DNA of 64,000 bases from Promethearchaeota archaeon (GTDB lineage Archaea > Asgardarchaeota > Lokiarchaeia > Sigyniarchaeales > SOKP01): NCBI GenBank assembly GCA_048939995.1, contig JBHLOY010000010.1, positions 81,887 through 145,886 on the forward strand. The letters are read 5' to 3'. A model generated the notes under the pieces. It was not told the origin of the DNA and did not search any database. It saw only the letters and a program-made list of their open reading frames with translations. Numbering within the stretch: the stretch's first letter is position 1; every line of letters begins with the position of its first letter. Shown here in pieces: positions 40,281 to 55,194 of the stretch. A program made the translations under genes and the position numbers.

Positions 40281-43200
40281 ATGACCATTTCAAATGAAAA
40301 TTATAATTTAATTGATATTATCTCGAATAACATTGATGACTTATTGTATATTCTTAATAGTTATTTCGAATGTGAGTACGTAAATGAAAAGGTTCATTTA
40401 AATACAATTGGATATTCTTGTATGTCAAAAAATTTCACAGAATACGTTTATCTGGGGGATAATAAAAAAGCTATTGAATTTCTAAGGAAAACTTTAAGAT
40501 CCGGACAAGCTCTTGAGGAATTTCGGATATTAAGTGAAAATGCCTATAAATATTTTGAGGTGCAAGGAAAGAGATTCTTTGACAAAAATTACAACGCGAA
40601 AATATTTCTTATATTAAAAGATATTTCTAAACTCAAGGAGTTAGAAGACCAATGGATGAAAAGAACTGAAAAATTAAAAGAGATGACGCAGAGTTTACCA
40701 GAGTTGAGATTTTGGAAACTTTTACAGACTAGAGGGTCAAAGACAGCTATCCAAGAAGCACATCAAATGTTAGATTTGGTTATAGACAGTATTCCTCAGT
40801 ATATTTTTTGGAAGGACATTCATTTAAATTATTTAGGTTGTAATAAAAATTATGCTCAAGTTAATGAATTAAAAGATTCTAACTTCATAATTGGAAAAAG
40901 AGATGAGGATTTACCTTGGCCTAAAAATAATTTGTCTCATATTCAAGAAAAAGAGAAGAATGTGATTGAAGTTAATCAAATTGAGCATTCAGTAGAACTA
41001 TTAATCTTACCCAGTGGAAATAAGGGTTGGTTTGAAGTAAATAGAATTCCACTTCATGATTTGGATAATAAAATAATTGGGATTTTATCATCATATAATA
41101 ACATTACTGATCGAATAACAGCTGAACAAAAGTTAAGTCAATCAGAATTGAAATATCGCAGTATTCTTGAAAACATAAAGGAGGGATACTTTGAAGTCGA
41201 CTTAAAAGGTAATTTTACTTTTATTAATAATTCTTTCTGTGAGATTTATGGATATAATGAAGATGAGATCCTAGGACGGAATTACAGACGGTTTGCAGAC
41301 GAGAAGAATAGAGTAAAAGCGTATGAATCATTTAACCAAGTATATAACACAGGTATTGGGCAGAAATATTTACGATTTGAATTTATGAAAAAGAATGGAG
41401 AGATCATATTTCTTGAAACATCAGCTTATTTAAGATATGATTCAGATGGAAGAAAAATTGGTTTCTATGGAATGGTACATGATATAACCGATAAGTATCA
41501 TTTAGAACAAGAGTTAAAACAATCAGAACAAAAATATAGACTAATTTCTGAAAATGCTTATGACTTCATTTGCATAATTAATCAAGAACTCAAATTTGAG
41601 TATGCTAATGAACAACCTATTTTCAACATTCTAGGTTATAAAATCGAAGAAGTAATTGGAAGTTCAGTACTAAGCATTGTTAAACCTGAAGATAAAAAAT
41701 TAGCTCATAATGCTTTAATTCAAGGTTTTAAGGCTGGAGGAGGTACATTAGAACTTAAGATAAAGCATAAATCTGGTAATTGGATCTGGATAGAAGCTAA
41801 AGGAAAAACGTTTATTGATTTGGATGGCGAAATTAAGGGGATAATAATCGGGAGAGATATTACTGTGAAAAAGATGGCAGAAGAGAAACTGAAAAAGTCT
41901 GAAAAACGATTTAGGCATTTATTCGAGAGTTCGCCATTTACTATTTGGTTATTGAATTCAAATGGGATTGTTATTGACTGTAATCCAACAATGAATAAAT
42001 TACTTTCAAAATATACTAAAGAGGATATAATAGGTAAGCATTTTACTGAAGTTCTATCAATGTTTGAAAGACCTGAATACTTCATCCCATATTTCAAGAA
42101 AAGATTTGATGCCTTCATTAAAGATGAAAAAGTTGAACCTCTTGAATTCCAGATGACAAGAGGGGATGGGAAAAGTTTATGGTTAACCTTACAAAGTTCT
42201 AAAATAATTTTAGGCGATGAAACTCTAATACAAGTTATCATTCAAGATATAACTGAAAAAAAGAAAGCGGAGGATGATTTAAAGAAGTTAAATAAAGAAC
42301 TTGAAGAAATTATCCTTGAAAGGACGAAAGAGTTAAGAGAATCAGAAGAAAAATTCAGAACTATTGCTGAACAGACATCACTAGGTATTACCATAATTCA
42401 AGAGGGATATGTTAAATATACAAATCAAGCTTTATCTGATATCATAGGTTATTCGAATGATGAGATAAAAAATTGGTCAAGAAATGAATTTATTAAGAAT
42501 ATACACCCAGAAGATTTACCTTTTGTTTTAGAACAACTACAAAGGAAATTGGGTGGAGAAAATACTTTATTATCTCATCATACAGTTAGAATATTCACAA
42601 AATCTGAAGAAATGAAATGGGTAGAATTACATTCAAAAGCAATTAAATATCAGGGAAAGATAGCAGATTTCATAACATTTATAGACATAACAGATAAGAA
42701 AATAGCTGAACAAAAACTGATTGAATCAGAAGAAAAGTATCGCCACTTATTTGAAAATTCTCCTTATGGTGTTGTATTGATTGATTTTAATGGAACTATA
42801 ATTGATATTAATACTACTACTCCTAAGTTATATGGTTATACAAAAGCGGATTTACTAGGGAAAAACTATCTTGATCTTAAGGAAATATATCCATTAGAGA
42901 CAAAATCAGCATTGCGTAATATCACAAGTTTACTAAATAAAGGTGACTTTATATTGCCAAAGATGAAGCCCCAATTGATCAAAATTTATAAGAAAGATGG
43001 GACAACCGCTTGGGTGGAATCAGAGTTATCTTCAATTAAACTTGGTGATCAAATCTTCATACAAATAATTATTCAAGACATCACAGATAAGAAAATAGCT
43101 GAACAAAAATTAATTGAATCCGAAAAGAGACTCAGAGAACAAAATATAGAATTAAGAGAGTTGGATAAACTTAAGACTGACTTCATCAGCATTGCGGCTC

Positions 43201-43862
43201 ATGAATTAAAGACACCATTAATTTCTATAGGGGGATATGTAGATTTGATACTTATGAGAGATAAAGATCTAAAAAGTGAAATAAAGGAGGATCTAAAAAG
43301 AGTTTTAATCAATGTTCAGAGACTTGAAGATTATATTAATAGATTAATGGATGTAATGAAAATTGATGCTAAGAAAATGGAATTAGACTTTGGGGAATAT
43401 AATGTACTTCAGATCATAGAAAATACACTCTCAGAATTAAGTTTTCAAATTAATCAAAAAAGTTTGAGAATGAAAGTAGAAGTTGATAAAGAGTTTAAGA
43501 TGACACTTGATTCTTCTAGGATTTATCAGGTTTTTTCCAATCTTATTTCAAATGCAATAAAGTTTTCTAATCAAGGAAGTACAGTTGAAATCTCTGCTAA
43601 AATTAAGGATAAAAATTGTTTATTTTCAATAAAGGATTATGGAAAGGGTTTAAGCGATAATCAATTAAAGAAGTTATTTGGCAAATTTGTAACCATTGGA
43701 GTAAGTTCAGATAATTTTTCAACTTTTGAGAAAGGAAGTGGATTAGGATTATATATCGCTCGAGGGATCATTGAGGCTCATGGAGGAAAGATATGGGTAA
43801 AGTCAGAAGGATTAAATAAAGGCGCTGAATTTAAATTCACAATACCAATTAGAAGTTATTAA
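40281..43862 (+). CDS. Cytoplasmic multi-PAS (about 7) sensor histidine kinase
   Basis: Repeated PAS/PAC units ending in DIT; H-box AHELKTPL, N-box NLISNAIKF, G-boxes DYGKG and GSGLGL. Confidence 0.95.
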   Translation: MTISNENYNLIDIISNNIDDLLYILNSYFECEYVNEKVHLNTIGYSCMSKNFTEYVYLGDNKKAIEFLRKTLRSGQALEEFRILSENAYKYFEVQGKRFFDKNYNAKIFLILKDISKLKELEDQWMKRTEKLKEMTQSLPELRFWKLLQTRGSKTAIQEAHQMLDLVIDSIPQYIFWKDIHLNYLGCNKNYAQVNELKDSNFIIGKRDEDLPWPKNNLSHIQEKEKNVIEVNQIEHSVELLILPSGNKGWFEVNRIPLHDLDNKIIGILSSYNNITDRITAEQKLSQSELKYRSILENIKEGYFEVDLKGNFTFINNSFCEIYGYNEDEILGRNYRRFADEKNRVKAYESFNQVYNTGIGQKYLRFEFMKKNGEIIFLETSAYLRYDSDGRKIGFYGMVHDITDKYHLEQELKQSEQKYRLISENAYDFICIINQELKFEYANEQPIFNILGYKIEEVIGSSVLSIVKPEDKKLAHNALIQGFKAGGGTLELKIKHKSGNWIWIEAKGKTFIDLDGEIKGIIIGRDITVKKMAEEKLKKSEKRFRHLFESSPFTIWLLNSNGIVIDCNPTMNKLLSKYTKEDIIGKHFTEVLSMFERPEYFIPYFKKRFDAFIKDEKVEPLEFQMTRGDGKSLWLTLQSSKIILGDETLIQVIIQDITEKKKAEDDLKKLNKELEEIILERTKELRESEEKFRTIAEQTSLGITIIQEGYVKYTNQALSDIIGYSNDEIKNWSRNEFIKNIHPEDLPFVLEQLQRKLGGENTLLSHHTVRIFTKSEEMKWVELHSKAIKYQGKIADFITFIDITDKKIAEQKLIESEEKYRHLFENSPYGVVLIDFNGTIIDINTTTPKLYGYTKADLLGKNYLDLKEIYPLETKSALRNITSLLNKGDFILPKMKPQLIKIYKKDGTTAWVESELSSIKLGDQIFIQIIIQDITDKKIAEQKLIESEKRLREQNIELRELDKLKTDFISIAAHELKTPLISIGGYVDLILMRDKDLKSEIKEDLKRVLINVQRLEDYINRLMDVMKIDAKKMELDFGEYNVLQIIENTLSELSFQINQKSLRMKVEVDKEFKMTLDSSRIYQVFSNLISNAIKFSNQGSTVEISAKIKDKNCLFSIKDYGKGLSDNQLKKLFGKFVTIGVSSDNFSTFEKGSGLGLYIARGIIEAHGGKIWVKSEGLNKGAEFKFTIPIRSY

Positions 43863-43996: not shown

Positions 43997-46162
43997 ATGT
44001 CTACAATAATAGTTTCTGAAAAAAATAAGGCCGCTAAAGCAATTGCTGAGGCTTTAGGGACAGTTAAAACCATAGCTATATCAACAAAGATCAAAATTTA
44101 TTATGTTCCGGCAAAAAATTTATATGTTATTCCTCTTAGGGGACATATACTTGAATATAGGAATTCCCCCGCGTTTAAAAGTTGGACAAAAACTAATCCT
44201 CGTGAGATTATAACTAATCCTACTGCAATTGAGAAAGTGCCAATAAGTTATTCAAAACCTTATATTAAATTGTTAAAAGAATATTCTCAAAAGTCAAATT
44301 ATTGCATAATTGGGACTGATGCAGATATAGAAGGGTGCAACATTGGACTTTTTGATGCCCTCCCTTTTATACTGAACGCAAAACCTAATATTAAAGTATC
44401 TCAATTATGGTTAAGTTCATTAGAAAAAAGTGAAATTATACAGAAATTTCATAATCTTATTAATCCAAAGTATAATTGGGGAGAATCAGGAGAAGCTCGT
44501 GCTATAATTGATGCCTTTATAGGGTTTTCAGCTACTAGGGAGATAACCAATACTCTTAGCTCTTTATTAAGTAAGTTTAGGGTAAAATTTACATCAATTG
44601 GAAGAGTTCAAACCTCTCTTCTCTACTTAATTTATTTAAGAGAACAAGAAATAGAAAAATTTGTACCTGAACCTTATTTCACAATTGAAGCAGTTCTACA
44701 ACATAAACATGGAAATTTTAAAGCATACCATTTATTGAATCCTTTTAAAAAACAGGACGAGACAAAAGCTAAAAGTATTTATGCCAAAATCAAAAATGAG
44801 AAAATTGCTATGATTATAGACCTCGCCAAGGAATTAATTAAAAGATTTCCTCCTACTCCATTAAATACTTCGAAAGCTTTGATTCTTTTAACCAAAAATT
44901 TGAAAATATCTGCTCATACGGCAATGAACACAATGAATTCATTATATCTCAATAAAATAATCTCTTATCCTAGAACTGAAAGTGATATATATAAGAAAGA
45001 TTTTGATCATAAGGTGAAATTGAATCAATTTAAAAACCACACTAAATATGGTAATTATACCTCTAAATTAATAAAATATAATAAATTAATACCAACAAGT
45101 GGCAAAATCGATGCTGGAGATCATCCTCCTATTACTCCAATAATAGGTTTGGAATTAGAAGATAAGAAATTTGAGAATAATCTTCAAAAAAAAGTATATG
45201 ATTTACTCGCACGACATTACCTTGCTTTATTTGGTGATTATGCTACTGAATCAAAACAAACTTTAAACTTATTAATCAAAGATGAGCGATTCACTGCTCA
45301 AGTAGTCACATTAATTTCAGAGGGTTTTTTGGAGATTGCACCCTTCCTCCGACCTAAATATGATACTGAAATTCAAATTGTTGGTGATCAAATTCCTATC
45401 GAGAAGATATTATTTAATGAAAAAGAAACTAAACCACCACCTAGATATACGGATACTACTCTTCTAAAATTGATGGAAAAAAACCATCTTGGTACAAAAT
45501 CAACCAGGCCCATAATAATTAGATTACTCCAAACTAGAAAATTGACTCAGAGAGTCAAATACAACTATATCATAACCGCTTTAGGAACTTTTATTATAGA
45601 AAATTTAATTAAAATATGGCTTCCCTTTTTAGAACCTAGTTTTACTAAGAATGTTGAATTAAAACTTGAAGAGATCAAATTAGGAAAAAAAAAAATGCAT
45701 AACGTAATCCAGGAAGTTAAGGATGAATTTTTAAATTTATTTGATAAATTGCTTGCTAATAAGAAAAACATAATAGCTAATATTGATAGTTTTAAGAAAA
45801 AATTAGATCTTCAAACTCCTAAACCAATTCCTGTAATGACTAAATCCTTCTGTCCCTATTGCTACAGTTCTCCCATGAAATTTATAAACCTACCAAAAAA
45901 GAGATTTCTTGTATGTTCAGGTGAAAGTTGTAAGAAATTCCTCTCTCTCCCTAAAAAGGGTAAACTAGAGTTGTTAGCTACAAAGTGTTCTTTATGTGGA
46001 TTCAATATTTTTAAAATTTCTACTTATAAAAATAATAGACTTTTTACATATTGGCTTTGTCCAAAGTGTTGGAATGAAGGTTTAAATGAAAAGACTGGTC
46101 AAGGTTTTTGCTCTAATTGCGAAGGTTATAGAATTATAAATAATAAGTGTATGAAAAAATGA
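43997..46162 (+). CDS. topA: Type IA DNA topoisomerase with C-terminal Zn ribbons
   Basis: SEK, GH, TDADIEG TOPRIM, SIGRVQT, ISYPRT catalytic Tyr, HPPITP, GTKSTR. Confidence 0.93.
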   Translation: MSTIIVSEKNKAAKAIAEALGTVKTIAISTKIKIYYVPAKNLYVIPLRGHILEYRNSPAFKSWTKTNPREIITNPTAIEKVPISYSKPYIKLLKEYSQKSNYCIIGTDADIEGCNIGLFDALPFILNAKPNIKVSQLWLSSLEKSEIIQKFHNLINPKYNWGESGEARAIIDAFIGFSATREITNTLSSLLSKFRVKFTSIGRVQTSLLYLIYLREQEIEKFVPEPYFTIEAVLQHKHGNFKAYHLLNPFKKQDETKAKSIYAKIKNEKIAMIIDLAKELIKRFPPTPLNTSKALILLTKNLKISAHTAMNTMNSLYLNKIISYPRTESDIYKKDFDHKVKLNQFKNHTKYGNYTSKLIKYNKLIPTSGKIDAGDHPPITPIIGLELEDKKFENNLQKKVYDLLARHYLALFGDYATESKQTLNLLIKDERFTAQVVTLISEGFLEIAPFLRPKYDTEIQIVGDQIPIEKILFNEKETKPPPRYTDTTLLKLMEKNHLGTKSTRPIIIRLLQTRKLTQRVKYNYIITALGTFIIENLIKIWLPFLEPSFTKNVELKLEEIKLGKKKMHNVIQEVKDEFLNLFDKLLANKKNIIANIDSFKKKLDLQTPKPIPVMTKSFCPYCYSSPMKFINLPKKRFLVCSGESCKKFLSLPKKGKLELLATKCSLCGFNIFKISTYKNNRLFTYWLCPKCWNEGLNEKTGQGFCSNCEGYRIINNKCMKK

Positions 46163-46167
46163 GAATT

Positions 46168-46554
46168 TCAGTCTAGTTTAAATTTATACTTATTAAAAGC
46201 AGCACGAGTTAGTCCAACATAATTGTCACTAATTTTATAATATAATTTTCCATCCATTATTCTCCTTTCAACATAATCATTTTTCAAACATGCATTTAAA
46301 GAATTTATCATGGTTCCTAAAGTAACTGCACCCATATATTTTTGCTGACGTTTAGCAATTCGTACTAAGTCTAATTCTGAATGCCATTCTCCATCTGATA
46401 ATCCTATTAGGATTTCATTCTTAACAGGGATCTTAATATTTTTGATCTTATTAAACAATGCTGAATAATCTGGTTTATAATACTTTTTCAATATTTGAGT
46501 GGATTCAGTTCTACTATTTTGAAAATTTTGTTCCATATTTTGTATTAACACCAC
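46168..46554 (-). CDS. Winged-helix-like protein
   Basis: ILIGLSDGEWHSELDL...YVERR...YYKIS. Confidence 0.55.
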   Translation of the reverse strand: MVLIQNMEQNFQNSRTESTQILKKYYKPDYSALFNKIKNIKIPVKNEILIGLSDGEWHSELDLVRIAKRQQKYMGAVTLGTMINSLNACLKNDYVERRIMDGKLYYKISDNYVGLTRAAFNKYKFKLD

Positions 46555-46640
46555 AAACTATCTTATTTATAGTATAATATCGGAATAATATTTTTAATCA
46601 AGTGTAATACGCTAATAACATCTACAAAATATTGAGGAAA

Positions 46641-47756
46641 TCATAAAAGATTGTCTGGAATTCCTTCATTATAATATTTCGCACGCGTTACCCATAAATT
46701 TTGGAATTCTGGCAATAATGATAAAATTGATCCGCCAACCCATACTGAAAAAACGCGCTCTCTTGGAGCGATTATTTTAACATTTTGTTTCTTTTTCTTT
46801 CTTTTAATTAATTCTACTTCTAACTCTTGATGAATTCGTGATTTTAAATTAGGAAACATCGAAGAACCTCCACTCAAAAATATATTATTTAATAAATCTG
46901 GGCGAATATCGACATCGCATTCCTCAATAACATCTATTATTGCTTGAGGTAATGGATCCTCTTCTAATTCCATAGTAGGATTGAACAATAATTCTGGAAC
47001 TTTAAATCTCTCTTCACCTAATTTAATTGTTGAGCCATCTGGTAAAGAATAGGGCTTTTCATACTGCTCAGCTCGCTTAAGATCTTCCTTAAAATCTAAA
47101 GACACAAAACATGCTTTTTCTTTCAAAGCTCTTACTAATTCTCTTCTAATTGAAGAATCCGCTGAGAATCCTATCTCTCCAAGGATTTTTTCCATATATC
47201 TTGTTAATACTTTACCTCCTAATTCAAGTATTCTTATGGCATGATCTATTTTGTATCCCTCATAGATGGGAACTATTCTTGTCAGGCTATCACCAATTTC
47301 AACTACTAAGCCCGTTTGGAAACCTCCCGAATATAAAGTTAACATTGAATCTAATACGGGATAAAAAGCCATACATTGATAGTGTTCTAAAAACAATCTA
47401 AATAGTCGTGCTAAATCTTGTTTAGGAAATAATGGATGGACTGCAAATAGTATATTAACTAGACTGGGGTCAACTCGAAGGTTATAAAAAATATAATCAA
47501 TAATTTTCTCAAAGGTTATCCAATCTTGAATTCTGCCTTTCTCTATAGGATAAAGAATTTTGAATAGGCCTAGGGATTGTATTTCATCTCCTACATAAAA
47601 TTCATCTTTCTTAGCGCTCCCATAATCAAAATCAATTTGTTGATATTTGGGTGTTCCAACAATAGTAAAGAAAACCTGTGAAGGAAAATCTTCTCCAGCA
47701 TAGCCCGCTTTACTTGCAAAACTTCCTAAGTCAAGAACAACAGTTAAATTTCCCAT
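46641..47756 (-). CDS. Asgard actin-related protein (Arp-like)
   Basis: DLGS..KAGYAGED.P, YPIEKG, VPIYEGY, LPDG, PELLFNP, LSGGSSMFP, SVWVGGSIL. Confidence 0.93.
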   Translation of the reverse strand: MGNLTVVLDLGSFASKAGYAGEDFPSQVFFTIVGTPKYQQIDFDYGSAKKDEFYVGDEIQSLGLFKILYPIEKGRIQDWITFEKIIDYIFYNLRVDPSLVNILFAVHPLFPKQDLARLFRLFLEHYQCMAFYPVLDSMLTLYSGGFQTGLVVEIGDSLTRIVPIYEGYKIDHAIRILELGGKVLTRYMEKILGEIGFSADSSIRRELVRALKEKACFVSLDFKEDLKRAEQYEKPYSLPDGSTIKLGEERFKVPELLFNPTMELEEDPLPQAIIDVIEECDVDIRPDLLNNIFLSGGSSMFPNLKSRIHQELEVELIKRKKKKQNVKIIAPRERVFSVWVGGSILSLLPEFQNLWVTRAKYYNEGIPDNLL

Positions 47757-47820
47757 AATGCAAAATTAATATTAGAATTCTAAATCGTTTTGATTTTATA
47801 ATCAATTAACTTATTTATTT

Positions 47821-48567
47821 TTATATTAATAAAATTTTTAATGGAGTGTAAGTTGTCTCAGGAATATAAGCTTCTCCATAAGGAGAACTAATTGAATTTC
47901 CGTTTAGAGCTGCTGTGGATTCTGCCCAATCAATTACTCGTTCTAGTACTTCATTTTGTGATTCATAAACATGGTAAAAAATCTCTTTTTTCTTTTCCCA
48001 ATATTTTCTAATATCAACAATAACAAAAACAGCAGCATCAATATATTGAAACTTACAAGATGGAGATTCATAATAGTATACTCCAAAAGGAATCCACTGT
48101 CTTTCATGACCACCATAAGCTTTTCCACTTGAGCAGTGATAAATTGCCTCACGAACAATTAATGATAGATTACGATGAACACGATGAAAATCGGAAAAAT
48201 GAGGCATTAAAATGACCTGGGGTTGATATTCTCTAATTAAATTAGTGATTTTAGAGATCTTTTTTCTTTCGATCACCATATCTGTATAATTTAAATCAAT
48301 TATTTTTGATTTCAAAGCGCTTTTCACTAACTTCAGTTCAATTTTTCTCTGTTCCAAAATTTTTTCTTTATATAAAGTCCTTGCATAACCTCCTAACCCA
48401 CTTGTAGCCACAACTATAAAAACTTCAGACCCTAAATCTCTGTATTTAAGTATTGTTCCTCCACATGATATAACTTCATCATCTGGGTGTCCTGCAAAAA
48501 TCATTAATCTTTTAGGAACTACAATAGGTATGCTATCTTCACAAAGTAAGAAATCTTTTTTTTCCAT
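47821..48567 (-). CDS. PIG-L/LmbE-family N-acetylglucosaminyl deacetylase
   Basis: HPDDE..GGT, DFHRVH. Confidence 0.88.
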   Translation of the reverse strand: MEKKDFLLCEDSIPIVVPKRLMIFAGHPDDEVISCGGTILKYRDLGSEVFIVVATSGLGGYARTLYKEKILEQRKIELKLVKSALKSKIIDLNYTDMVIERKKISKITNLIREYQPQVILMPHFSDFHRVHRNLSLIVREAIYHCSSGKAYGGHERQWIPFGVYYYESPSCKFQYIDAAVFVIVDIRKYWEKKKEIFYHVYESQNEVLERVIDWAESTAALNGNSISSPYGEAYIPETTYTPLKILLI

Positions 48568-48646
48568 TTATGATATTTACTTCTCAAAATCAATAATAAA
48601 CTTTTGGAAATTGTAAAGAATAACAAAAAATAAGAAGAAACTGACT

Positions 48647-49336
48647 TTATTCTCCTCTCATTATTTTCTTAAGCCGATTTAATTCTTCAAGCATTTCATC
48701 TCTTAAGGAACTTAAACCACCACCCGCTTTAGGAGCCATTGTGGGAGTTATCGAAGGGGTAGCTCCAGGAGCTCTTGGTGGTCCACTATTGGGGGCAGTA
48801 GGTGGTCCAGGGCGTTTTGCGAAAGTTGGAGCTTGAGTCACTCCCCCACTTGGTGCTGCAGGAGGCGCACCACTTCCAGGTGCTGGAGGCAACTTAGGTG
48901 CTGGTGGTAAACCAGAACGTTTCGGAGGTCCTCCTCCTGAAGCTGGAGGTGCTCCGCTTGGAGGTGCGGCTGGAGGTCCTCCACTTGGTGCTTTAGGCGC
49001 TCCCACAACAGGAGGTTTAGGAAGACCTAAACTCGCGCTTGCCGTTGTTGATGCAGTAGCAGGTGCTCTCCCACCACTCAACAAATTGAATAATGTACTT
49101 GCTGCAGCAGTCTTAGCGTTACCTGTAGTTGGTGCTGCAATCATTTTAGAGGAGGTACTAACCGTTTGAACTTCTTCAACAACAACTTCCCTTAAATCTT
49201 TTTGTGCTTTATTTAACGACTTGACAAAATCATTAATCCCTTTAACGGTTTCCTCAAGATCATCTGATAAAGAAGTCAATCCCTTTTTCATGAAATTAAT
49301 TACGCGTTCTAACTTTTTTTGTTCTTTTGAAACCAA
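48647..49336 (-). CDS. Coiled-coil, proline-rich protein with WH2/VASP-like C-terminal helix
   Basis: N-terminal heptads; GLPPAPKLPPAP-type linker; GGGLSSLRDEMLEELNRLKK. Confidence 0.7.
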   Translation of the reverse strand: MVSKEQKKLERVINFMKKGLTSLSDDLEETVKGINDFVKSLNKAQKDLREVVVEEVQTVSTSSKMIAAPTTGNAKTAAASTLFNLLSGGRAPATASTTASASLGLPKPPVVGAPKAPSGGPPAAPPSGAPPASGGGPPKRSGLPPAPKLPPAPGSGAPPAAPSGGVTQAPTFAKRPGPPTAPNSGPPRAPGATPSITPTMAPKAGGGLSSLRDEMLEELNRLKKIMRGE

Positions 49337-49599: not shown

Positions 49600-49866
49600 A
49601 TGCCTAAGCGCGAATTATTTATTAAAAGAGTGTATGAGATCGTCAACGAATTAAAGATTCCATTAATTGATGAAAGAGTGTATGATAAGGTTAATTTTGG
49701 CACAAGTGCCGCAATTGCAAAAATTGTATTCAAATTTGAGGAGGATGAGTCAGTAATTCGCGGATTTCTTGGTTTAGCGGAATACTTTCATACAGTGGTT
49801 ATAAAGAAGGGCGACCAATTTTATATACCCCATGCTTCTATTCTCTTTCAATTAGTCAGCTCTTAA
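49600..49866 (+). CDS. Small hypothetical protein
   Basis: 88-aa ORF with AGGTG SD-like sequence upstream. Confidence 0.7.
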   Translation: MPKRELFIKRVYEIVNELKIPLIDERVYDKVNFGTSAAIAKIVFKFEEDESVIRGFLGLAEYFHTVVIKKGDQFYIPHASILFQLVSS

Positions 49867-50892: not shown

Positions 50893-51447
50893 ATGGAGGC
50901 TCAAGATACAAAAGGTAAAATTATTAGAGAGACTTTTCCATCTGAAGTTATATCTATCGTAGGAGATATTTTTGCGGGGATAATTCTATCAATTTTAATC
51001 TTACCATTTGAAAGCTTCCTCCTTTTAATTTTAATAATCCCTCCTTTATTATCTCTAAGAGGTAATATTACTGCTCCTTTTATCGCAAGAACGGCACGAG
51101 ATTTAATTATTGGAGAATTCAATATTCGAAAATGGTTTGAAAACGTGTTGGCAACCTACTTCCTTTCATTAATTACAGCGACCCTTATTGGGTTTATTAG
51201 TTTATTATTAGACTTAGTGTTTTTTAGAATATTTCTCTTATCGATTCCTATCATGATCTTTATCCCTGTAATTTCTATATCTTTAACACTCTCAATTTCT
51301 ATCCCAATATCTACTATTCTCAACTATTTCATATTTAGATATGGTTTAAATCCTAATAATATAGTAAATCCTGTAATGACCGCGATTGGAGATTTCTCCA
51401 TGGTGATTTGTTTTTATCTAACCATAATAATTTTAGGGGTGCCATAG
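50893..51447 (+). CDS. MgtE/SLC41 integral-membrane half 1
   Basis: LRGNI..AR; NPNNIVNPVMTAIGD. Confidence 0.85.
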   Translation: MEAQDTKGKIIRETFPSEVISIVGDIFAGIILSILILPFESFLLLILIIPPLLSLRGNITAPFIARTARDLIIGEFNIRKWFENVLATYFLSLITATLIGFISLLLDLVFFRIFLLSIPIMIFIPVISISLTLSISIPISTILNYFIFRYGLNPNNIVNPVMTAIGDFSMVICFYLTIIILGVP

Positions 51448-52005
51448 ATGGACTATTTTAAGAAGATATGCAAGGAGTCTATAATAATTGTAATTCTTTC
51501 TTCTATTATTGGGATATTTTCTGGCTCAATATTATCTACTAGTCAAGAAATTTTATATAGTTTTCCCATTATCCTTTTAATTCTACCAGCATTGAATTCC
51601 TTAACAGGGGATATAGCAACAGTTTTAGTATCCCGTTTAACAACCCATTTATATATCGGCATTATACCTCCTAAAATTCAAAAATCCAAGAGATTAACTA
51701 GTGACTTTATAGGTCTGCTACTCACTCTTATATTAAGTTTAATTGCTTTAATTATTATAGGATATACACTCGGATTTTTAACAGGTATTCAAATCGTGAA
51801 TCCATTTTTAATTATTATGATTATAACTATTAGTATATTAATCCTATTTATATTGATGTTCATTCTTTTATTTATTAGTTCAATAGTTATATTTAAGAGA
51901 GGGAAAGATCCAAACAACTTTCTTATACCACTCACAACATCCTTAGCAGATTTTTTAACACCTTTACTCTTAATCATTTTTATCAAAATATTTATATTTT
52001 ATTAA
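51448..52005 (+). CDS. MgtE/SLC41 integral-membrane half 2
   Basis: LTGDI..SRL; DPNNFLIPLTTSLAD. Confidence 0.85.
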   Translation: MDYFKKICKESIIIVILSSIIGIFSGSILSTSQEILYSFPIILLILPALNSLTGDIATVLVSRLTTHLYIGIIPPKIQKSKRLTSDFIGLLLTLILSLIALIIIGYTLGFLTGIQIVNPFLIIMIITISILILFILMFILLFISSIVIFKRGKDPNNFLIPLTTSLADFLTPLLLIIFIKIFIFY

Positions 52006-52035
52006 AATTAATGAAAATTTAGAGATATCGTAAAG

Positions 52036-53280
52036 ATGCCAGTAAAGAAAAAGAAATTTAAATACAAACCTTTATCCTTAAAAGACATTTTAAGGGAAAT
52101 GAAACAGAATATAGATCTAATGATAGATTTAGCATATAGCGCGATTAAATTTGGAATTAGGGAAATTGCTGATGAGACTTCTAAAATTGAAAGACGTATA
52201 CATGAATTAACATTTTTACTAAATTTGCAAATCATTCAAGCTCAAGCTGGAGGAATAAAAGAAGCAAAAAAGCTTGAACCAATCGTAGTGATGGGTTATT
52301 CTATAGATAAAATTTCTGATGCTCTTGCGGATATAGCAAAAGTGGTCTATATCAATAGTGATATTCGCGATTTTACTCAATTATTTTGGAATGATGTACC
52401 TGAACCAATAGTAAAACTAACCGTTAATGAACCGTGTGAATTTATAGGACAATCGCGTCATGATATCCATTTTCGTTCTAGATATGGAGTGGACTTAATT
52501 GCAATTAAAAGAGGAGAAAAATGGTTATTTAATCGAGATCAAGTAATTGAAAAAAGTGATATCTTAATTATTAAAGGAGAACTTGAACCAATTAATGAAT
52601 TAAAGAGATTGGTTTTTGATGCTCAAGCTATCTCTTTTCAAATTGATGAGGAGATTACTGAAAGTGAATTTGATTTAAATAATCCTGAAATATTAGAATA
52701 CATCCAAGAACTAAAAAAAGATTATGTACTGATTACTGATATTTCCGAAACAATGATTGAATTAGCTTTAGCTTCATTATTTTTCAATAGTTATGAGGTT
52801 GCAGAGGACGTCTTAGAGATGGAGGAGTTAATGGATGGTTTAAACATCACTTTTGAAAAAGATCTTTTAGATTTTGCCCAACTGGTTGAAAATCCTCGAA
52901 ACTTAACAGGAATAATGAGAATAGTTTTTTCTTGTGAACAAATAGCAGATGGTGCTGCCAATATCGCTGAAAATATCTTAAAAGGTTTTGAGCCTCATGT
53001 AATTTTACAAAAGGCAATCGAAGAAACTCAAGAAGTTGTAGTACGTGAAACTTTATCAAGCGATTCTTACTTCAAAGGCAAAAATTATGCTCAACTACAA
53101 GACAAGCGATATAAAAGAGGATTTCATATCATTGCGATGAAAAGAGAAAACAAATGGATCTATAGCTTTAAACCTGACTTTATATTTCAAGAAGGGGATC
53201 TTTTAATTGGTTTGGGACCAAAAGAAACTCTGGATCAATGGAGGCGTTGCGTTCATCCAGAAATTTTTAGAGAGGAATAA
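52036..53280 (+). CDS. Tandem (PhoU plus TrkA-C/RCK_C) x2 regulator
   Basis: LMIDLAYSA..DKISDA, then IAIKRG; repeated as TMIELALAS..EQIADG, then IAMKRE. Confidence 0.85.
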   Translation: MPVKKKKFKYKPLSLKDILREMKQNIDLMIDLAYSAIKFGIREIADETSKIERRIHELTFLLNLQIIQAQAGGIKEAKKLEPIVVMGYSIDKISDALADIAKVVYINSDIRDFTQLFWNDVPEPIVKLTVNEPCEFIGQSRHDIHFRSRYGVDLIAIKRGEKWLFNRDQVIEKSDILIIKGELEPINELKRLVFDAQAISFQIDEEITESEFDLNNPEILEYIQELKKDYVLITDISETMIELALASLFFNSYEVAEDVLEMEELMDGLNITFEKDLLDFAQLVENPRNLTGIMRIVFSCEQIADGAANIAENILKGFEPHVILQKAIEETQEVVVRETLSSDSYFKGKNYAQLQDKRYKRGFHIIAMKRENKWIYSFKPDFIFQEGDLLIGLGPKETLDQWRRCVHPEIFREE

Positions 53281-53292
53281 AATTATATTGTA

Positions 53293-53889
53293 ATGAAGAA
53301 GATGAAATATCAAGAAAGAAAAATAAGGCTTTTAAATACCATTAATGAAATATCTAATAATCTCATTAAGAATAGTGAAACAATAAATTTTGACAAAATT
53401 AATGAATTAATAGATATGATTGTAAGAACCTATGCTAAAAATTATATGATCTTCATTTATGGAGCAGGAAGATCTGGGTTTATTGGCAGATGTTTTGCTC
53501 AGCGACTAATGCATTTAGGGATAAAATCTTGTTTTATTTCTGATGCTGTTACATATCGTTATCATTCTTATGACTTATTAATTATTATTTCTGGGAGTGG
53601 AGAAACTACTTCCCCATTAGCACTCGTACAGAAGGCAAAGGAGATAGGAGGTAAGATAGTATTAATAACTGGTAATCCATATAGCACAATGGGTAAATCC
53701 TCTGATTTAATTATTCAAATTGAAGGGAAAAGAAAAGATAAAGCAATTAATGAAGAAACCTTGGCTCCATATACCACTTTATTCGATATTGCAGCATTAA
53801 CTATATTAGATTCAATTGGAGGGATTTTAATGAAAGTTTTAGGGGTAAAAGAAAAAGATATTGATCTAAGACATGCCTCAATAGAATAA
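53293..53889 (+). CDS. hxlB: 6-phospho-3-hexuloisomerase (SIS domain)
   Basis: GAGRSG, FAQRLMHLG, SGSGET, RHASIE. Confidence 0.88.
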   Translation: MKKMKYQERKIRLLNTINEISNNLIKNSETINFDKINELIDMIVRTYAKNYMIFIYGAGRSGFIGRCFAQRLMHLGIKSCFISDAVTYRYHSYDLLIIISGSGETTSPLALVQKAKEIGGKIVLITGNPYSTMGKSSDLIIQIEGKRKDKAINEETLAPYTTLFDIAALTILDSIGGILMKVLGVKEKDIDLRHASIE

Positions 53890-53920
53890 TGTTCTTACAA
53901 ACTCTTAATATTATTAATTA

Positions 53921-54325
53921 GTGAAAATTATGCATAATTATATTGAAGTAAAATTTATTTCTGATAAAAAAGGCAGAGGTGCATTTGCTAAAAAGTCAAT
54001 TAAAAAGGGAACTCTAATTGATGTGGCACACGTTATACCTCTTCCCAATAAAGATTACGAGAAAATCTGTAATACTATTTTATACCATTATTGTTATGTC
54101 TGGGAAGATCCTAAACATTTACCCGAGTTTGAGAATGCCATAACGCTTAGTGTAAGCCAATTTATGAATCACTCATATAAACCCAATGTAAAATACTTAT
54201 ATGATTATGATAAAAAAGCAATCGAATTTACAGCATTAACAAATATCGCAGAAGGGGAAGAGTTGACTATTAATTATAATGGTATAGTCGGTGATAAAAC
54301 TCCTGTATGGTTTGATGTAGTGTAA
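53921..54325 (+). CDS. SET-domain protein-lysine methyltransferase
   Basis: GRGAFA, FMNHS..PN, GEELTINY. Confidence 0.9.
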   Translation: MKIMHNYIEVKFISDKKGRGAFAKKSIKKGTLIDVAHVIPLPNKDYEKICNTILYHYCYVWEDPKHLPEFENAITLSVSQFMNHSYKPNVKYLYDYDKKAIEFTALTNIAEGEELTINYNGIVGDKTPVWFDVV

Positions 54326-54327
54326 AT

Positions 54328-55194
54328 TCATTGTTTTCTTAAAGAGTTTAAAATTGCCAAATTCATTATATCCTCTTTCAAATCTTTTCCTTTTGGTGTT
54401 TCTAATATGCCGGGATGTTCTTTAAATCTGTTATCATTAATAAAGAATCCAAATGGGGCCTTTCCAATTTTTCCTTGACCGATATGGATATGACGATCCA
54501 CTCTAGATCCTAATCCTTTTACAGAGTCATTAAGATGAAATGCATAAAGGTAAGTTAGTCCTATTTGATTATCAAAATCATCCCACATTTCATCATATTT
54601 TTTCTTGGTAGTGAAATCATATCCGGAGGCAAAAGCATGACAAGTGTCAAAACAAACTCCAACTCTTTCCTTGTTTCCTATTTTATCAATAATAAATTTC
54701 AAATGATGAAATTTTCGTCCTAAATTATGACCTTGCCCTGCAACAGTTTCTAATAAAATTTTTACAGTAGAATTCTTAGTATTTTCTATCAACTTATTTA
54801 TTTGTTCGGCAATTCGAATTAATCCGGTCTGTTTATCTTCATTTTTATCTTCGACATTAAACGTCCCCGGATGAATCACAACATAATCTAATTTAAGCTG
54901 TTCAGCTTTAATTAATTCATCAAGCATGGCTTTGTATGATTTTGTAAGCTTCTCTTTATCTGAAGTTGCTAAATTAATCAAATAACTATTATGAGATAAC
55001 AATGGCCAGATCAGATTTTGATTTTCCTTCCTCTTTTGTAAAAAATCATCGATTTCTTTTTGTTCTAAGGGTTTTGATGCCCAACCTCGAACATTTCGTA
55101 TAAACATCTGAATTGATTCACAACCGAGCTCTCGTCCGCTTTCTAAAGCCATATATTTGCCCCCACTTACAGACATATGAGCTCCGAGTCTCAA
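54328..55194 (-). CDS. nfo: Endonuclease IV
   Basis: GAHMS, HNSYLINL, HPG, ETVAGQG, DTCH, HLNDS, DRH, LETP. Confidence 0.95.
   Translation of the reverse strand: MRLGAHMSVSGGKYMALESGRELGCESIQMFIRNVRGWASKPLEQKEIDDFLQKRKENQNLIWPLLSHNSYLINLATSDKEKLTKSYKAMLDELIKAEQLKLDYVVIHPGTFNVEDKNEDKQTGLIRIAEQINKLIENTKNSTVKILLETVAGQGHNLGRKFHHLKFIIDKIGNKERVGVCFDTCHAFASGYDFTTKKKYDEMWDDFDNQIGLTYLYAFHLNDSVKGLGSRVDRHIHIGQGKIGKAPFGFFINDNRFKEHPGILETPKGKDLKEDIMNLAILNSLRKQ

Follow-up and report, generated by a model that had tools for sequence, protein, structure and literature searches.

The window analysed here is a stretch of 64,000 nucleotides from a Promethearchaeota archaeon (NCBI GenBank assembly GCA_048939995.1, contig JBHLOY010000010.1, positions 81,887 to 145,886 of the forward strand). 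The source genome belongs to the Promethearchaeia (Loki) and has a size of 3.75 Mb at 98% completeness. The minus strand of the window carries a gene for a proline-arm adaptor (PRP), a member of a protein family distributed across the Asgard archaea. In silico analysis of this family leads to the tentative proposal that its members recruit ESCRT/Vps4. The gene and its parts are listed below, with the supporting evidence in brackets:

48647..49336, minus strand: proline-arm adaptor gene (PRP), 229 amino acids, soluble form of the pan-Asgard family (open reading frame, ORF, and homologues)
49178..49327, minus strand: head helix, residues 4-53, amphipathic of heptad type, likely a coiled coil (AlphaFold2, AF2, pLDDT 78-92)
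49079..49117, minus strand: short conserved amphipathic helix, residues 74-86 (AF2 and alignment)
48725..49078, minus strand: disordered Pro/Gly/Ala/Lys arm with PP dipeptide repeats, about residues 87-204 (AF2 and sequence)
48884..48910, minus strand: conserved Leu-Pro block, residues 143-151, loosely MIM2-like (alignment)
48659..48715, minus strand: tail helix, residues 208-226, the family signature (AF2 and alignments)

The PRP reading frame starts at a TTG codon, common to the homologues in the alignment. Searches of Pfam, PDB and Atlas assigned no family to PRP, to its head or tail, or to the neighbouring 88-residue protein u88. Despite the lack of a Pfam or PDB family, the homology search returned 210 homologues, and PRP is therefore a real, conserved gene. 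The AF2 model, built on an alignment of 19 rows, predicts three helices (residues 4-53, 74-86 and 208-226) and disorder everywhere else. An earlier interpretation made from the DNA and its translations (the sequence-only reading) had described an N-terminal coiled coil, a Pro/Gly/Ala arm and a C-terminal helix; the AF2 helices and the arm at about residues 87-204 agree with this layout. The short helix at residues 74-86, in which L82 and L86 are invariant across Lokiarchaeia, is a feature absent from that reading. The head helix finds only generic coiled coils in PDB. The tail consists of two 11-residue near-repeats, which form a straight hydrophobic stripe with conserved opposite charges on its flanks. 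Most of its positions are 96-100% conserved in 120 close homologues, which bears out the expectation of a conserved C-terminal motif.

The family is widespread. Of 301 Asgard genomes, 231 contain a match to a profile built from the last 34 residues, in most cases one copy each, and a broader profile added previously missed genomes from five more families. The named carriers are MK-D1, L. ossiferum, H. repetitus, Sigynarchaeum, Helarchaeota, Odinarchaeum, Baldrarchaeota, Atabeyarchaeia and Heimdallarchaeum aukensis; the L. ossiferum orthologue, UYP44328.1, is bracketed by its neighbours. A GTDB-wide pattern scan gave 71 loci, and the record titles of almost all of these name Asgard or an uncultured archaeon. 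Three motif carriers are titled Nanopelagicaceae (L166), Deferrimicrobium (L221) and Bathyarchaeota (L212); judged by their sequence, L166 (with the full gene block of family f1, that of the source genome) and L221 (equal to a Loki-class contig) are clearly Loki-class DNA, and their titles look wrong. The family is not described in the literature searched, asCOG tables not covered, and is an undescribed pan-Asgard adaptor.

Reading of the matches revealed two forms of the family, in which one arm and tail stand behind two different heads. The soluble form, with a long and a short helix, occurs in Lokiarchaeia (PRP included), Odinarchaeum and families f13, f17, f24 and f26. The membrane form, which has one or many transmembrane (TM) helices and a helical hairpin where the soluble form has its long head helix, occurs in families f9, f10, f12, f18-f21, f27, f30 and f32, and with diverged tails in f11 and f14. 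In the lokiactin tree the soluble form is confined to one half, whereas the membrane form occurs in both, which makes the latter the probable ancestral form. The two forms appear to be orthologous, to judge from the common tail and arm, the single copy per genome and a common neighbour, a probable tRNA endonuclease gene found near both. The soluble head helix shows no significant alignment with the membrane-form hairpin (hhalign 3.8%), and a hairpin profile finds no match in the source genome at E 0.001. The Leu-Pro block follows the relaxed MIM2 pattern in 15 of 19 soluble-form members (3.2 expected), an enrichment seen in the soluble form only; the strict pattern, (L/V)Px(V/L/I)P, is found in 2/19 soluble-form and 3/14 membrane-form members, which is not above shuffles. 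The members in family f27 (L101, L107, L109, L111) have a large multi-pass membrane region, with two tandem copies in genome G252. L233 (G102, family f25) holds two adjoining genes with terminal SHOCT/SB-like hairpins (SB, steadiness box), without arm and tail.

A near-universal protein with a near-invariant 19-residue tail calls for an equally conserved partner. The ESCRT interpretation relies on two resemblances, that of the membrane-form hairpin to SB and CdvA and that of the tail to MIM1-type tails. The best matches of the hairpin are the Vps23 steadiness box and CdvA. When the tail and Asgard ESCRT-III MIM1-type tails were scored in both directions with reciprocal matrices, 78% fell in the top 1%, against 6% of the control coiled-coil tails. 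The aligned part comprises residues 212-224 (13 positions), and the tail is a C-terminal amphipathic helix in the register of ESCRT-III tails. PRP itself has a single head helix in the AF2 model and no SB-type hairpin, and neither Pfam nor AF2 gives it an ESCRT-III (Snf7) core fold. That the family acts as an ESCRT/Vps4-recruiting adaptor is thus a plausible proposal, somewhat short of an even chance, in which the anatomy is observed and the binding is what we infer from it.

In the proposed mechanism, the head would position and oligomerise the adaptor, in the membrane form via its TM anchor and the pairing of hairpins and in the soluble form via its coiled coil, perhaps together with u88. 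The disordered arm would give reach, and the tail helix would bind in a MIT-domain groove, the simplest candidate being Vps4, just like the MIM1 helices of ESCRT-III. Vps4 may in this way be recruited to a membrane site or tuned there, in a manner resembling that of CdvA or IST1, and within the Asgard ESCRT system the protein would be an adaptor of low abundance. A membrane-binding amphipathic helix was also considered for the tail and set aside, given the acidic residues on one flank and a conservation that would be too strict for lipid. A separate observation is a 1,651-residue protein (L281-L284; G000:C24:4434-9386) in which four weak MIT-like matches were seen; its own C-terminal end has a score resembling that of ESCRT-III tails.

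Among known systems, the CdvA protein of Sulfolobales (PMC12818579; PDB 9S9G) shares a helical hairpin, a flexible linker and a C-terminal recruiting peptide; the membrane-form hairpin superposes on it with a root-mean-square deviation of 0.7 A over 69 residues. However, the adaptor has a TM anchor or a plain head helix instead of the PRC barrel, its tail is a helix and not an E3B peptide, its gene lies outside any cdv/ESCRT operon, and PRP itself has no hairpin. The hairpin of the membrane-form relatives may be of the SB type known from ESCRT-I Vps23/TSG101 (PMC11188069; 10.1101/2023.07.25.550441). According to the accessible text of these two papers, Asgard genomes encode many SB fusions, thought to be linked to ESCRT-I. 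These are patchy in distribution, whereas the adaptor family is near-universal; the adaptor lacks UEV, PH, zinc-ribbon and winged-helix domains, and the combination of TM, SB-like hairpin, proline arm and tail is not among the architectures that this text describes. Asgard ESCRT-III MIM1 tails (PMC7240154) have the same hydrophobic and charged register after a proline-containing linker, but the adaptor has no ESCRT-III core, and its tail has extra hydrophobic turns and stronger conservation.

Proteins outside the family carry the tail helix as well, frequently with two or three copies set apart from one another, in combination with domains of the small GTPase, zinc-finger, TIR or repeat type; one such copy lies in the source genome (L110). 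These portable copies behave like a docking motif for a multimeric hub. They fit a Vps4 hexamer, an actin filament and self-association alike, and therefore do not decide between them. A zinc-finger-like domain (CxxC ... CCxC) follows one to three tail helices in L110:1384-1824, P0125, P0126, P0133, P0145, P0167, P0171 and P0173, often preceded by a small GTPase in the same fusion protein. Another version of the tail helix, with a Leu-Phe end, is found in P0157, P0160, P0170 and P0172, and in P0143 a whole soluble-form adaptor is preceded by a hydrophobic N-terminal segment and followed by a TIR-like domain at the C-terminus.

The neighbouring genes in the window are the following:

40281-43862, plus strand: multi-PAS histidine kinase, part of the family-level block (reading of the genes)
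43997-46162, plus strand: topoisomerase IA that ends in a zinc ribbon, likewise in the family-level block (reading of the genes)
46168..46554, minus strand: conserved 128-residue ORF with no assigned family, in the family-level block (conservation)
46641..47756, minus strand: actin paralogue (Arp), 43-44% identical to the lokiactin of the source genome
47821..48567, minus strand: PIG-L/LmbE-family deacetylase (PF02585, E 5.6e-22)
49600..49866, plus strand: u88, 88 residues, no assigned family, the most widely common neighbour (locus comparisons)
50893-55194, plus strand: putative split MgtE-like, PhoU/TrkA-C, SIS, SET and endonuclease IV genes of the family-level block (reading of the genes)

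The minus-strand genes run in the order PRP, PIG-L deacetylase, Arp and 128-residue ORF, with gaps of 79, 64 and 86 nt; PRP does lie two genes upstream of the Arp on the same strand with short gaps, as the sequence-only reading had stated. The deacetylase is a passenger, being absent from the block in several genera. The Arp is one of four actin-family genes in the source genome, the true lokiactin being located on another contig, and its orthologues were found only in families f1 and f2. Compared to lokiactin, it has altered residues in the phosphate loop and at the hydrolysis site and a basic insertion near residue 320, with a cleft that is still hydrophobic. A TATA-like octamer (47794-47801, some 38 nt upstream of the Arp start) and a T-rich tract directly after the PRP stop (48620-48646) suggest, as a weak indication in a genome of 30% G+C, that Arp and PRP may be on separate transcripts. 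A search for the protein u88 detected it in 8 of the 9 genomes that have the soluble form, and in none of the 13 membrane-form families covered; its gene often adjoins that of the adaptor, in variable orientation. It is a conserved alpha/beta protein, represented in L. ossiferum by UYP44135.1. While u88 is the widely common neighbour of the soluble form, that of the membrane form would be putative rpiA, PIN-ATPase and tRNA endonuclease genes.

The linkage to the Arp is confined to family f1, where the Arp lies at most 5 kb downstream of the adaptor gene in 40 of 43 loci; no actin gene occurs at any locus examined outside this family, so that the synteny expected across Asgard archaea holds in one family and fails elsewhere. 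The linkage is about as close for topoisomerase I (36/43) and u88 (39/43), and what is conserved in f1 is the whole gene block, not the Arp pair alone. A small point for the link is that the loss of PIG-L in some f1 genera leaves the adaptor gene and the Arp directly adjacent (nine loci). In four f2 genomes (MK-D1, L. ossiferum, H. repetitus and G042) a distance of 44-272 kb separates the adaptor gene from the Arp orthologue. No Arp orthologue was found in Helarchaeota, Odinarchaeum, f13, f17, f24 or f26, all of which carry the adaptor gene. The phylum-wide conservation of the tail therefore cannot be owed to the Arp, which is a family-level neighbour and probably not the partner of the adaptor. 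In L. ossiferum and MK-D1 the Arp and u88 are about 10 kb apart, despite the relocation of the adaptor gene.

The sequence-only reading had taken PRP for a possible primitive nucleation-promoting factor, WH2/VASP-like, which feeds profilin-actin to the co-oriented Arp. The f1 linkage speaks for it, and Asgard nucleators are still undiscovered (PMC9433394), but the similarly close linkage of the other block genes and the Arp distribution described above oppose it. WASP/WAVE WH2 proteins and Ena/VASP resemble the adaptor in their broad arrangement, a helical head followed by a proline-rich middle part and a helix at the end; their diagnostic motifs are missing from it. The WH2 profile PF02205 has no match at the locus at E <= 10 in five genomes, and in the same number of genomes the VASP_tetra profile PF08776 does not pick the locus, nor is there an EVH1 domain. 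The WH2 signature is Leu and two basic residues followed by Thr or Val (PMC9433394), whereas L-K-K-T/V occurs in 0 of 39 pan-Asgard tails, the third residue of LKK being K in 18 of them. The likeness to a helix followed by LKK is also lost, for LKK lies inside one continuous helix (208-226). The arm does not qualify as a profilin ligand, as the longest proline run of PRP is two; runs of five prolines are found in none of the 19 Lokiarchaeia members (5.1 expected from shuffles) and in 2/14 members of the membrane form (1.6 expected). None of 33 members has a Trp in the last 40 residues, hence no Trp-bearing acidic tail. A profilin profile matched 11 of 42 genomes, the source genome not among them, and is too insensitive for a comparison of presence and absence. 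Such a role for the Arp is very improbable. A tail that binds the hydrophobic cleft of lokiactin, and tethers or regulates actin at the membrane, is rather unlikely. Its model is arcadin-2 of Pyrobaculum, which binds crenactin (PMC5173319; PDB 5LY3) and likewise has a core, an unstructured linker and a small conserved C-terminal helix, encoded near an actin homologue; the comparison is one of layout. Arcadin-2 places a Trp in the cleft and no family tail has one, and the actin linkage of the adaptor exists in one family only. Lokiactin is as widespread as the adaptor family (PMC9834061), and the families with the most divergent actin (51-54%: f16, f22, f25) are those in which no member was found. 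The persistence of the f1 gene beside the Arp after PIG-L loss also counts for it, as do tail residues 212-219, which fit the WH2 helix pattern. Against it stand the missing WH2 match, L-K-K-T/V motif and polyproline, and the lack of a lokiactin gene at any locus examined. In the published Lokiactin co-immunoprecipitation (co-IP) from L. ossiferum (10.1101/2025.11.30.690169), the part of the protein list examined (all but 841 rows), spanning log2 ratios of 10 to -1.06, includes actin and gelsolin and none of the tags of UYP44328.1 (probably GNAMCCOK_00620, range 00614-00620, by the identifier table of that paper). This negative is weak, because the orthologue is likewise missing from the upper part of the proteome that was examined (about 1,900 proteins by estimate, the other 3,120 rows not covered). 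Most gelsolins and profilins rank in the top 500 of that proteome (10.1101/2025.11.30.690169), and the adaptor is therefore suggested to be scarcer than these. Four proteins without a name in the identifier table (GNAMCCOK_00333, 02751, 04250, 04085) are enriched above Lokiactin in the same co-IP (Supplemental Table 2) and may be unrecognised partners or antibody cross-reactions. A wider version, an Asgard actin assembly factor that was ancestrally membrane-anchored, with an ESCRT-I-type hairpin and a tail gripping lokiactin, whose helix was taken up again by Lokiarchaeia to tag GTPases and zinc-finger proteins in WH2-like fashion, is doubtful.

Two further explanations dispense with both actin and MIT domains, and each is unlikely, though to be taken seriously. 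The tail may be a short self-associating coiled coil similar to the VASP tetramerisation domain, so that a scaffold is cross-linked at both ends and other Lokiarchaeia proteins join by the helix tag. The near-repeats, stripe and flank charges would suit this, together with a conservation that exceeds that of ESCRT-III tails and the recurrence of the tail in unrelated proteins, which often have two or three copies of it. However, 19 residues are short for a stable bundle, tandem copies fit the ligand of a multimeric partner equally well, and the PF08776 result is joined by the absence of any matching PDB oligomerisation domain. As a second candidate, almost as unlikely, the tail may dock on another conserved hub, with the soluble form pairing with u88. 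The distribution and frequent adjacency of u88 and the portable tails in small-GTPase, zinc-finger, TIR and repeat proteins point in this direction, but u88 cannot account for the conservation of the tail in lineages that lack u88, the soluble-form families occupy one half of the lokiactin tree so that the u88 match may be a single event, and no candidate hub was found. Taken as a whole, the sequence-only reading is partly supported: its layout stands as that of an adaptor or scaffold, and the actin-nucleating part is unsupported.

New here are the recognition of a membrane-anchored form with an SB-like hairpin, the resemblance of the tail to MIM1-type tails, the finding that polyproline is lacking and the comparison with the co-IP data. 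The adaptor may touch two open questions, namely how ESCRT-III/Vps4 is placed on the Asgard membrane and how lokiactin is nucleated or anchored. Orthologues are present in the cultured strains MK-D1 and L. ossiferum (UYP44328.1). If the actin assembly factor were the true explanation, the actin cytoskeleton would have been tied to membrane and ESCRT before eukaryotes arose. If the family is linked to ESCRT, it would be a candidate for an upstream adaptor similar to CdvA in the archaea most closely related to eukaryotes.
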